Below are positions 11,789-13,984 of a DNA stretch of 64,000 bases, piece by piece (position 1 is the first letter of the stretch; the number at the start of each line of letters is the position of its first letter). The notes beneath the pieces are model-generated. The model was not told the origin of the DNA. It did not search any database and was given only the letters and a program-made list of their open reading frames with translations. The stretch lies in assembly GCF_011045215.1 (NCBI RefSeq), contig NZ_CP049201.1; one strand, given 5' to 3'. This DNA comes from Escherichia coli (GTDB lineage: Bacteria > Pseudomonadota > Gammaproteobacteria > Enterobacterales > Enterobacteriaceae). Made by a program: the position numbers and the translations under genes.

Positions 11789-11995
11789 CTACCCGATGAG
11801 CCAAATAACAAACGCTGTGAGCACCGCACCAATGGTGATCGGAAAAAGACCTCTGGCATAAGCGGCGAGGTAATGAACGTTGAGAACAATAAAGCGTTCT
11901 TTTTGTCCTGTTAGCTTGCTAAGCAGATAAATCGCTATTACACCCACTTCTAGGAATACAAGGTCCAAAATGGCGCTGGTGATATTGTTGGTCAT
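11789..11995 (-). CDS. Small membrane protein (68 aa, two hydrophobic helices)
   Basis: ORF directly downstream of the cox-like gene. Hydrophobic composition. Confidence 0.5.
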   Translation of the reverse strand: MTNNITSAILDLVFLEVGVIAIYLLSKLTGQKERFIVLNVHYLAAYARGLFPITIGAVLTAFVIWLIG

Positions 11996-12001
11996 TTATG
12001 A

Positions 12002-12289
12002 TTAAAGCCCCAGCCACAACAACCATGCATCGCGGCGTTCTTTCGGCTGATCAAAAAACGCTTTGCGCATACCTGCGTTAAATGCTGGCAGATATACCCA
12101 GTTTTCTGATGCTCGCGTCTTCACTGAACCTGGTTTCACAAAGTCAATCGTTGGTAATTTTGCAGCGTCAATCATGGTTCTGACGGTTGATTCTTTGCGA
12201 CCAATCATCTTGGCAAATAGTTGATATGGCACCGCTTCAAGTGGATATGGTGCTACCTGAATGAACCCCTCAAGCTCTGATTCGCTCAT
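12002..12289 (-). CDS. cox: Cox-like excisionase / lytic-switch regulator (P2 Cox family)
   Basis: The segment PYQLFAKMIGRKESTVRTMIDAAKLPTIDF...NWVYLPAFNAGMRKAF...RDAWLLWLGL resembles remembered P2 Cox. It is the first gene of the leftward operon, divergent from the repressor gene. Start chosen at MSESE (AAGGAG Shine-Dalgarno); the track ORF extends to 12325. Confidence 0.75.
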   Translation of the reverse strand: MSESELEGFIQVAPYPLEAVPYQLFAKMIGRKESTVRTMIDAAKLPTIDFVKPGSVKTRASENWVYLPAFNAGMRKAFFDQPKERRDAWLLWLGL

Positions 12290-12404
12290 TGTGGTAATCT
12301 CCTTAATTCGTCCAAATGGCCCCAAATGGCTTATATAGGCTTATTTTGGCTATTTGAATGTTTTGTATTACATGTAACCCAATAGCGTGGAGTTTAGATC
12401 ACAT
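12290..12404. promoter_or_regulatory. Divergent early/repressor promoter-operator region (Pe/Pc-type immunity switch)
   Basis: 115-bp AT-rich intergenic region between the divergent cox-like and C-like genes. It carries tandem CCAAATGGC repeats (12312-12320, 12322-12330) and GGCTTA repeats. Confidence 0.6.
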
Positions 12405-12725
12405 ATGATCCATAAATCAAGCCTTGGAGAAAAACTTCGCCTGATTCGAGAGGCAGAGGGATTGTCACGTAGAGAGATGGAAGAGGTGACAGGGGTATCT
12501 CAAAACAATCTCAAAAATTATGAAATATTGGGAAGAATGATACCTGGAGAAACGCTACTCCTGATTTTGAATCATCCTCGTTTTCGGAAGTATTCGGATT
12601 GGGTGATGTTTAATCAAACTAATGCTGCGACGGGGCAGATTGCTCCGCCTCTCTCTCTTGATGGCTTCTTCGATTCGGAGGGCGATCAGGTTTCAACCGA
12701 AACAAACCAAAAATCACCCCGCTAA
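12405..12725 (+). CDS. Immunity repressor, P2 C-like (HTH)
   Basis: The segment LSRREMEEVTGVSQNNLKNYE...RFRKYSDWVMFNQTNAATGQIAPPLS resembles remembered P2 C (LSRQQLADLTGVPYGTLSYYE...QFTKYTLWFMTNQIAPESGQIAPAL). Start placed at the ATG at 12405; the track GTG at 12387 lacks a Shine-Dalgarno. Confidence 0.75.
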   Translation: MIHKSSLGEKLRLIREAEGLSRREMEEVTGVSQNNLKNYEILGRMIPGETLLLILNHPRFRKYSDWVMFNQTNAATGQIAPPLSLDGFFDSEGDQVSTETNQKSPR

Positions 12726-12821
12726 GGCCAGAAAACTGGTTAGACCTGCTCTTTGTCTGGTCTGATTATTGCTGGAAAGAGGCTGGAGAAATTGTAGAGC
12801 GGTTCATTGGAGGGCTTCGCA

Positions 12822-13826
12822 ATGTCAATTAAGAAGCTCGAAGATGGTCGTTATTTGCTGGACATCAGGCCGAACGGACGCAAGGGAAAGCGCGTGCGTA
12901 AGGTATTTGACAAAAAATCGGTAGCGGTGGCCACTGAACGCTACATCATGGCGAACGCTGAAAAGCGGGAATATATACAGGGCTACCGTGATCGCCGAAC
13001 GCTAAATGATTTGCTTGAGTTGTGGTGGATGTATCACGGTCAACACAGGCGTAAGGCGGAAGAAGACCGAAAACAACTGCGCAACATAATCAATGAGCTT
13101 GGCGCTGATATGCAGGCTGTGGATCTTGATAAGCTGAAAATTATCGCGTGGCGTTCTCAAAAGATAGCTGATGGATTGAAACCGTCATCTGCTAACAGAT
13201 ACATGAATCGGTTATCCGGAATGTTTACCGTACTGAAGAAAATAGGCCTCTGGGATGCAGAACATCCGGTAAGGGGAATTTCTATTCTTTATGTATCTCC
13301 ACGAGAAATGGCTTTCCTGTCCCAGAAGGAAGTGGCGCTATTGCTCGATACACTGGAGGGCGATTACTGGCGTGTTGCGCTTTTGTGTTTAAGCACGGGG
13401 GCGCGCTGGAGTGAAGCTTGTAAGCTTCGTGGTGAACAGATAGTTCATAACCGTGTAACGTTTCTTGAAACCAAAAATGGCCGAAAGAGAACAGTGCCAA
13501 TTTCGCAGGCAGTTTGTGAGGCGATCAAAACCAGAGAAACAGGCGGCTTGTTTGAGGTGAAGTACCGGGAATTCTGCTTGGCGCTGAAAAGAGTTAAGCC
13601 CGATTTGCCAAAAGGCCAGGCTGCACATGTGCTGCGGCATACGTTCGCCAGCCATTTTGTGATGAACGGAGGAAACATTATTGCGCTTCAGAAGATTCTT
13701 GGCCACGCAACCATTCAGCAAACAATGGCATATGCACATTTTGCACCGGATTACCTGCAGGATGCGGTGGCCCTTAATCCGCTGAAAGGTGGCGTGAGTG
13801 TCCACGCAGTGTCCACGGGGGATTAA
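12822..13826 (+). CDS. int: Tyrosine integrase, P2 Int family
   Basis: The N-terminus MSIKKLEDGRYLLDIRPNGRKGKRVRK and C-terminal HVLRHTFASHF...MAYAHFAPDYLQDAVALNPL (catalytic His/Arg/Tyr region) closely resemble remembered P2 Int. GGAGGG Shine-Dalgarno 7 nt upstream of the ATG; the track TTG at 12807 is an alternative start. Confidence 0.9.
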   Translation: MSIKKLEDGRYLLDIRPNGRKGKRVRKVFDKKSVAVATERYIMANAEKREYIQGYRDRRTLNDLLELWWMYHGQHRRKAEEDRKQLRNIINELGADMQAVDLDKLKIIAWRSQKIADGLKPSSANRYMNRLSGMFTVLKKIGLWDAEHPVRGISILYVSPREMAFLSQKEVALLLDTLEGDYWRVALLCLSTGARWSEACKLRGEQIVHNRVTFLETKNGRKRTVPISQAVCEAIKTRETGGLFEVKYREFCLALKRVKPDLPKGQAAHVLRHTFASHFVMNGGNIIALQKILGHATIQQTMAYAHFAPDYLQDAVALNPLKGGVSVHAVSTGD

Positions 13827-13984
13827 TTTTATATAGCCTGAAACGGCTTAAAGGGCGATACTGAATAACAATTTTTCAGTATTGCCCGTCTAAATGGTTA
13901 TGTTGTTATCTGTATGATTATGAATGTTTTTTCAGATTAAACAGCAGTTTGCAAATGGGCGTTTGTTAATAAAGGAGCCTTAGA

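Follow-up and report, generated by a model that had tools for sequence, protein, structure and literature searches.

Introduction

In P2-like phages the two promoters of the lysis/lysogeny switch face one another, with the immunity operators positioned over the lytic promoter and the operators for the directionality factors Apl and Cox positioned over the lysogenic promoter (PMC7498355). [quoted passage not shown] The directionality factors bind tandem repeats that are spaced at a helical turn (PMC7498355). In the annotated P2 record, the spacer between cox and C is 114 bp long; the -35 element of the early promoter Pe lies within the first C codons, operators O1 and O2 (half-site GTTTAGAT) are situated 4-33 nt from the C ATG where they flank the Pe -10 element, and the -10 and -35 elements of the lysogenic promoter Pc are found at 18-43 nt from the cox ATG. 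The footprint of P2 Cox over Pc covers at least 70 nt and comprises at least six cox-boxes of consensus TTAAA(G/C)NC(A/C) that recur every 10-11 bp (PMC3936717). Cox targets are not uniform; that of WPhi Cox is reported to differ, being a 12-nt direct repeat (PMC5009727).

The half-sites recognized by C repressors are 22 bp apart in P2, 26 bp in Hy dis and 34 bp in WPhi (PMC1904268); they flank either the -10 or the -35 element of Pe. These three repressors are 43-63% identical and heteroimmune (PMC1904268), and C of the P2 family has been reported to modulate its own promoter (PMC3448106). Coliphage 186 resembles the locus described here in that the first gene of its lytic operon encodes a directionality factor (PMC7498355). 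This protein, Apl, binds direct repeats at 10-11 bp spacing both between the face-to-face promoters pR and pL and at att, and its binding is cooperative, bends the DNA and spreads (PMC7498355). Conversely, 186 departs from our locus in having CI/CII-type immunity with a repressor of another family and seven Apl sites, while Apl itself is distantly related to Cox. In the literature that we searched, we found no characterised lysis/lysogeny switch for P88 or other members of Xuanwuvirus. A corrected and testable annotation of the switch in this common but uncharacterised genus is of practical value.

Results

The switch that we have analysed is contained in a stretch of 64,000 nt from Escherichia coli (contig NZ_CP049201.1), which we refer to in its entirety as the window. 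A cox-like gene on the minus strand (12002-12289) opens the early (lytic) operon and encodes a protein of 95 aa that belongs to the Phage_Cox family (Pfam PF10743, E=1.2e-22; score 80 bits, where the cut-off is 27.5), matches the P2 Cox structure (PDB 4LHF, E=5.9e-26) and is annotated as a 'Cox family DNA-binding protein' in the records of Citrobacter phage Shae_phiSM and of E. coli. On the plus strand, positions 12405-12725 encode a C-type immunity repressor of 106 aa from the P2 C family, with a match to the P2 C protein (PDB 2L49/2XCJ, E=2.2e-13, residues 5-87) and with HTH_3/HTH_31 domains. Among 50,697 phage records this C type recurs in Shae_phiSM alone (99%), with all others being at most 50% identical. 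Downstream of C and co-transcribed with it is a gene for a tyrosine integrase (12822-13826, plus strand; PF24624 and PF00589). These matches substantiate an initial annotation of the region as an immunity switch between divergent Cox-like and C-like genes, and identify it as the lysis/lysogeny switch of a P2-like prophage. Directly downstream of cox lies a conserved, hydrophobic ORF of 68 aa (11789-11995, minus strand), which occupies the position of P2 orf78 and is labelled 'hypothetical' in all relatives.

The region is 98.9% identical over cox-C-int to Shae_phiSM, which carries the same C type, and its identity to P88_4B11 and PhiR44_2 is about 80%; these three phages, like Chuche, belong to the genus Xuanwuvirus (P88-like) of the family Peduoviridae. 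A prophage of E. coli KSC9 matches the region at 100% identity, and related sequence is present in 653 of 5,426 complete E. coli genomes. By these relationships the prophage is assigned to the P2-like (P88-type) phages of the genus Xuanwuvirus. Its gene order of cox, spacer and C-int-att is that of the P2 switch (Saha et al.; Berntsson et al. 2014, PMC3936717), its spacer is 115 bp compared with 114 bp in P2, and the encoded proteins are 55% (Cox), 36% (C) and 50% (Int) identical to their P2 counterparts.

The intergenic spacer (12290-12404, 37% G+C) separates the cox ATG (12289-12287, minus strand) from the C ATG (12405, plus strand). Within it are two copies of CCAAATGGC, at 12312-12320 and 12322-12330, whose starts are 10 bp apart; the length and AT-richness of the spacer and the two repeat copies about a helical turn apart are as the initial annotation had described. 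It had also recorded repeated GGCTTA/TTGGCT elements, which are indeed present (GGCTTA at 12328 and 12338; TTGGCT at 12346) and form part of a more extensive pattern. Four boxes, CCAAATGGCC, CCAAATGGCT, TATATAGGCT and TATTTTGGCT, follow one another at 10-bp phase across 12312-12351 as a candidate Cox-binding array. Each box consists of an A/T-rich pentamer followed by GGC(C/T), giving the architecture W5-G-G-C-Y, with GGC at positions 12318, 12328, 12338 and 12348. Weaker flanking units may extend the array to about 12302-12361. Measured from the cox start, the boxes occupy 23-62 nt; the CCAAATGGC pair alone occupies 23-41 nt from the cox ATG, its distance to the C ATG being 75-93 nt. The GGCC-like core looks much the same on either strand, phased arrays can be read on both, and the boxes may be oriented either way.

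Shuffling of the spacer confirmed that these repeats are real and beyond chance. A direct repeat of at least 9 nt at a spacing of 6-12 was found in 0.3-0.8% of shuffles, a trinucleotide occurring four times at lag 10/11 was found in 0.2-0.4%, and the lag-10 autocorrelation in this switch reached z=5.0. The perfect identity of the two 9-mers is due to a single-base private variant, C at 12323, which is confined to this haplotype; all 15 of the other distinct spacer haplotypes from relatives have A at this position and read CAAAATGGCT or AAAAATGGCT. To judge from this comparison, the conserved element is AATGGC / GGCT at 10-bp phase, rather than CCAAATGGC itself. Inspection of the spacer by eye did not reveal the IHF consensus WATCAANNNNTTR. 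Across the window as a whole, AATGGC occurs 77 times, compared with 52.8 +/- 7.7 in shuffles, none of 100 shuffles attaining 77; this excess is probably an effect of codon usage or composition. Given this over-representation, isolated matches outside the switch carry no weight.

Cox-box arrays are recognized by at least three repeats at helical-turn spacing (10-11 bp), and the spacer contains four boxes at exactly 10 bp. Judged by eye, each box agrees with three to five of the eight specified positions of the P2 cox-box consensus, which falls short of a match, although the architecture W5-G-N-C is common to the two. With Cox being only 55% identical to its P2 counterpart, an identical box sequence is not to be expected. 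Hence, the poor agreement makes it less probable that these are P2 cox-boxes as such, but not that they work like them.

Comparison of sister phages revealed which of the switch proteins the boxes accompany. Between the types represented by the window and Shae_phiSM, by P88_4B11 and by Chuche, Cox is 96.8-100% identical and Int 97-99.7% identical, whereas C identity is no more than 45-49% and the recognition helix differs. This degree of C identity is on the level of the heteroimmune P2, WPhi and Hy dis set, and the three sister C types are presumably heteroimmune. P88_4B11, PhiR44_2 and Chuche have cox, boxes, int and att in common with the window, but their C types and the C-proximal part of their spacers are unlike those of the window. 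Two copies of AATGGC and two of GGCTTAT are invariant across the three C types and 16 haplotypes; in one haplotype group, the GGC of box 2 is replaced by GAC. An alignment of the types is nearly invariant from cox to about 12347 and then collapses. Calculated over 30 nt at a time, 83-100% of positions agree with P88 and Chuche up to about 12350, where the value sinks to 43-47%; agreement is restored at about 12650. The conserved cox-proximal half could in part be the product of where recombination joints are placed, rather than of selection on the boxes.

The same association extends to less closely related phages. The boxes are kept in relative L045, whose Cox is 74% identical and whose flanks have diverged, and where the array is even clearer (GCGAATGGCT AAAAATGGCT TGTATTGGCT ATTTTTGGAT). 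Where the Cox homologue is 53-55% identical, and in P2, phased TAAT(T/G)GC(T/C) boxes occupy the same place. In all nine Cox-family switches examined, that of P2 included, lag 10 is the top autocorrelation lag of the cox-proximal half (z 2.0-5.0), and in the C-proximal half it is never the top lag. From phage to phage, therefore, the array follows Cox and not the immunity repressor, and the boxes cannot be what distinguishes the immunity of this prophage. Two relatives (L020 and L026) were considered as simple recombinants of a window-type cox half with a Chuche-type C; this was rejected on finding that their C genes are fused double-C genes, and both were left out of the covariation argument.

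The array is located at the same distance from cox as Pc and the cox-boxes of P2, separate from the type-specific region. A possible Pc -10 element, TATATA, is present at 12332-12337 on the plus strand; it is suggested by positional analogy to the TATAAT of P2 Pc and is not accompanied by a convincing -35 element. A standard promoter scan of 11900-12900 returned no sigma-70 site on either strand, and a relaxed scan returned no plus-strand promoter; the latter scan also misses the known Pc of P2.

The relaxed scan does recover the annotated Pe of P2, and its output is to be read as a prediction. In all four C types, the best Pe candidate falls at one homologous position on the minus strand, with 8-11 of 12 consensus positions: TTGATT-18-TAAACT in the window (8/12), TTGACA-18-TATCCT in P88, TTGACA-18-TATACT in the Chuche type and TTGACG-18-TATTAT in L045. 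For the window, this places the predicted -10 element at 12391-12396 and the predicted -35 element at 12415-12420, the latter within the first C codons as in P2. This runs counter to the initial annotation, in which the early promoter was put beside cox; a P2-type Pe sits at the C-proximal end of the spacer and Pc at the cox-proximal end.

An unbiased search for repeats in the C-proximal segment, which recovers P2 O1/O2 at lag 22, identified better candidates for C operators at this end of the spacer. The distal candidate GTTTTGTATTACATGTAACCCA (12360-12381) lies downstream of the predicted Pe -10 element and the proximal candidate GTTTAGATCACATATGATCCA (12392-12412) lies between the predicted -35 and -10 elements, overlapping the C start codon in the position of P2 O1 (4-11 nt from the C ATG). 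Local self-alignment of the two gives 16 identities in 22 columns with one gap (shuffle p about 0.06); the ungapped repeat, 10/14 at lag 31, is by itself not significant (shuffle p 0.35). The corresponding repeats are 13/14 at lag 31 in the P88 type and 12/14 at lag 31 in L045 (shuffle p<0.003 for each), and 11/14 at lag 24 in the Chuche type (shuffle p 0.04). The type-specific repeats, weak in the window and strong in the sister types, thus flank the predicted Pe -10 element, and it is mainly from positional homology with the sister types that operators are assigned in the window. As candidates, they resemble the C operators of P2 and WPhi, which likewise flank the Pe -10 element, and their spacing of 31 bp is near the 34 bp of WPhi. 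We propose that immunity specificity resides in this C-proximal third of the spacer, in the type-specific repeats flanking the predicted Pe.

A single exact copy of the P2 O1/O2 half-site GTTTAGAT is present at 12392-12399, where it overlaps the predicted Pe -10 element (chance about 0.8% in spacer shuffles). We considered this as a sign of P2 immunity and rejected it, as the copy stands alone and is oriented opposite to those of P2. P2 C, being unable to bind a lone half-site, is not expected to bind this one.

The end of int holds two arm-type sites for Int, GTGTCCAC(gca)GTGTCCAC (13798-13816, plus strand), which are homologous to the P' arm of P2 by comparison with the annotated P2 attP. 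Beside them, in the position of the Cox footprint at P2 attP, are the box-like units TATATAGCCT, GAAACGGCT and TAAAGGGCG (13830-13857, plus strand). When a PWM derived from the four switch boxes was applied to the whole window, 13830 and 13839 ranked in the top 0.1%; clusters of two such hits number about 20 per 64 kb, so that this pair does not stand out from background and is no evidence by itself. A similar resemblance between switch and att was seen in relative L055. By analogy with P2, the units at 13830-13857 are a possible excision-side Cox site.

Homology between the prophage and the free phages Shae_phiSM, P88_4B11, Chuche and PhiR44_2 continues across the pdxB ribosome-binding site and the first ~12 codons. 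This homology from int into pdxB, to about 14019, locates the attachment core in the 5' end of pdxB. On this evidence from alignment, the phage integrates in the 5' end of pdxB and brings its own promoter and 5' end as replacements. Beyond the junction, the phage carries another pair of Int arm-like sites (GTGTCCACGCAGTGACCAC).

Discussion

Our findings suggest that the phased boxes at 12312-12351 constitute a Cox-binding array over the lysogenic promoter Pc, a reading to which we assign a probability of roughly 0.7. Cox would then act in a dual role, as directionality factor for excision and as repressor of the lysogenic promoter. Protomers of Cox would bind cooperatively to the four phased boxes, one per helical turn, and the DNA would be bent or wrapped by the bound protein. 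By analogy with P2, Pc would underlie the boxes and read rightward into C-int, such that bound Cox would occlude it; synthesis of repressor and integrase would be shut off and the phage committed to lytic growth. At high concentration, a Cox filament may also spread toward Pe.

The likeness to P2 is close in architecture and looser in detail. Both switches have 10-bp phased repeats about 20-60 nt from the cox ATG, a Pe -35 element in the first C codons (as predicted here) and two copies of GTGTCCAC at the end of int. They differ in the box itself, which is W5-GGC(C/T) in the window and TTAAA(G/C)NC(A/C) in P2, and in the number of boxes, four being clear in the window as opposed to at least six in P2. 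The candidate C operators of the window measure about 21 nt and are 31 bp apart, compared with 8 bp and 22 bp in P2, the predicted Pe is weaker (8/12) and integration takes place in the 5' end of pdxB. The cox-boxes of P2 have been footprinted, and the array described here is a candidate predicted from sequence. In all, the region is an ordinary example of the well-known P2-type switch design and leaves the known mechanism of the switch unchanged.

The initial annotation had interpreted the CCAAATGGC and GGCTTA repeats differently, as half-sites of a C operator that overlies the early promoter and sets the immunity of the prophage. Its general premise is sound, in that P2-family C repressors do bind direct-repeat operators at the early promoter, and the repeats here are both direct and non-random; a C site near Pc is not inconceivable either, given the report of C modulating its own promoter (PMC3448106). 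The premise fails for these particular repeats, which are not at the Pe end. They are misplaced in the spacer for such a role, their distance to the C ATG being 75-93 nt rather than the 4-33 nt of P2 O1/O2, they are spaced by 10 bp rather than the 22, 26 and 34 bp of known C operators, and CCAAATGGC bears no resemblance to the P2 half-site GTTTAGAT. Moreover, they are unchanged between phages whose C proteins are 45-49% identical with different recognition helices and whose Cox proteins are 97-100% identical, while the predicted Pe and the type-specific repeats are to be found elsewhere. Failing to fit the operator class of P2, WPhi and Hy dis in position, spacing and covariation alike, the repeats are very unlikely to be C operator half-sites, and the claim that they define immunity specificity is contradicted by their conservation.

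Two further explanations dispense with a dedicated regulator. Phased units of A/T and GGC might create intrinsic curvature, provide an UP-like promoter architecture for a weak Pc or form a site for a host nucleoid protein, and be conserved along with the cox-int module. Indeed, bent DNA is classically marked by A/T tracts in 10-bp phase, the region has 37% G+C, a Pc without a recognizable -35 element might need such help and conservation follows the module boundaries. Nevertheless, it is the G+C core (GGC/GGCT) of each unit that does not vary, and not the A/T tract, and the same feature is present where P2 Cox was footprinted; we regard curvature or promoter architecture as an unlikely explanation in its own right, although curvature and wrapping by Cox are not mutually exclusive. 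It is more improbable still that the repeats are without function, having arisen by recent local duplication or slippage and hitch-hiking with the neighboring genes. The origin of the perfect 9-mer identity in a private one-base variant would be in keeping with such a history. However, the phasing of four boxes is kept in L045 with its Cox of 74% identity, phasing with a shifted motif is seen alongside Cox homologues of 53-55% identity and in P2, and the shuffle tests gave p below 0.01. A Cox-binding array over Pc is, therefore, the reading that we prefer.

Several consequences for annotation follow from the corrected map, in which a candidate Cox array at 12312-12351 is succeeded by candidate C operators at 12360-12412 and a predicted Pe at 12391-12420. 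Because the repeats are common to all three sister C types, they are unfit for defining or predicting the immunity group of this prophage. Placing an operator by the gene that is controlled is an annotation trap of a general kind in P2-like switches.

It is tempting to speculate that the boxes belong to a fixed cox-int-att cassette, with a recurrent recombination joint at ~12350 and a second joint at ~12640, inside C, that would let the Pe operators and the DNA-binding part of C be swapped. If true, such a swap of an immunity cartridge among P88-like phages would leave the specificities of Cox and Int untouched. In-frame capture of a second C module at the same joints may have given rise to double-C repressors of 195 aa, by which a lysogen might become immune to two phage types simultaneously, and the palindromic C sites described below would, if true, depart from the P2 paradigm of non-palindromic half-sites. 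Taken jointly, the cassette with its joints, the double-C capture and the palindromic sites form a tentative proposal to which we give distinctly less than even odds.

Several observations touch on these points. The variable segment (12350-12640) is sharply bordered, on one side immediately right of box 4 and on the other inside C, before a conserved C-terminal tail (GQIAPxLSxDG...) that is common even to Peduovirus phages at about 85% DNA identity. In four relatives outside the window (L020, L026, L027 and L041), the C position, about nt 116-703 upstream of cox in the window orientation, is occupied by a gene for a tandem-fused double-C repressor of 195 aa. The protein consists of two complete C modules fused in frame, the first being Chuche-type and the second window-type in L020, L026 and L027 and P88-type in L041, and the spacers of these relatives contain Chuche-type operator-like repeats only. 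In E. coli, the exact sequence of the double-C protein is found on 193 contigs and a 97% variant on 416, annotated merely as a helix-turn-helix protein. A fusion of this kind could work as a heterodimer in a single chain or provide dual immunity as a repressor.

The candidate C sites of the clade appear to be palindromic, in contrast to the non-palindromic 8-bp half-sites of P2. They read ATGCC-CGATAT-GGCAT in the P88 type (L024/L002), TTTCTCATATGAGAAA in the Chuche type (L021/L004) and TGCCACATATGGCA in L045, and in the window they read TTACATGTAA and GATCACATATGATC (12368-12377 and 12398-12411). Each is present in two copies, 24-31 bp apart, with the proximal copy centred on the C start codon. 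Two GATC (Dam) sites are contained in GATCACATATGATC (12398-12411), a candidate site that extends over the C start codon and the predicted Pe spacer, and it is conceivable that methylation-sensitive regulation could operate through this pair.
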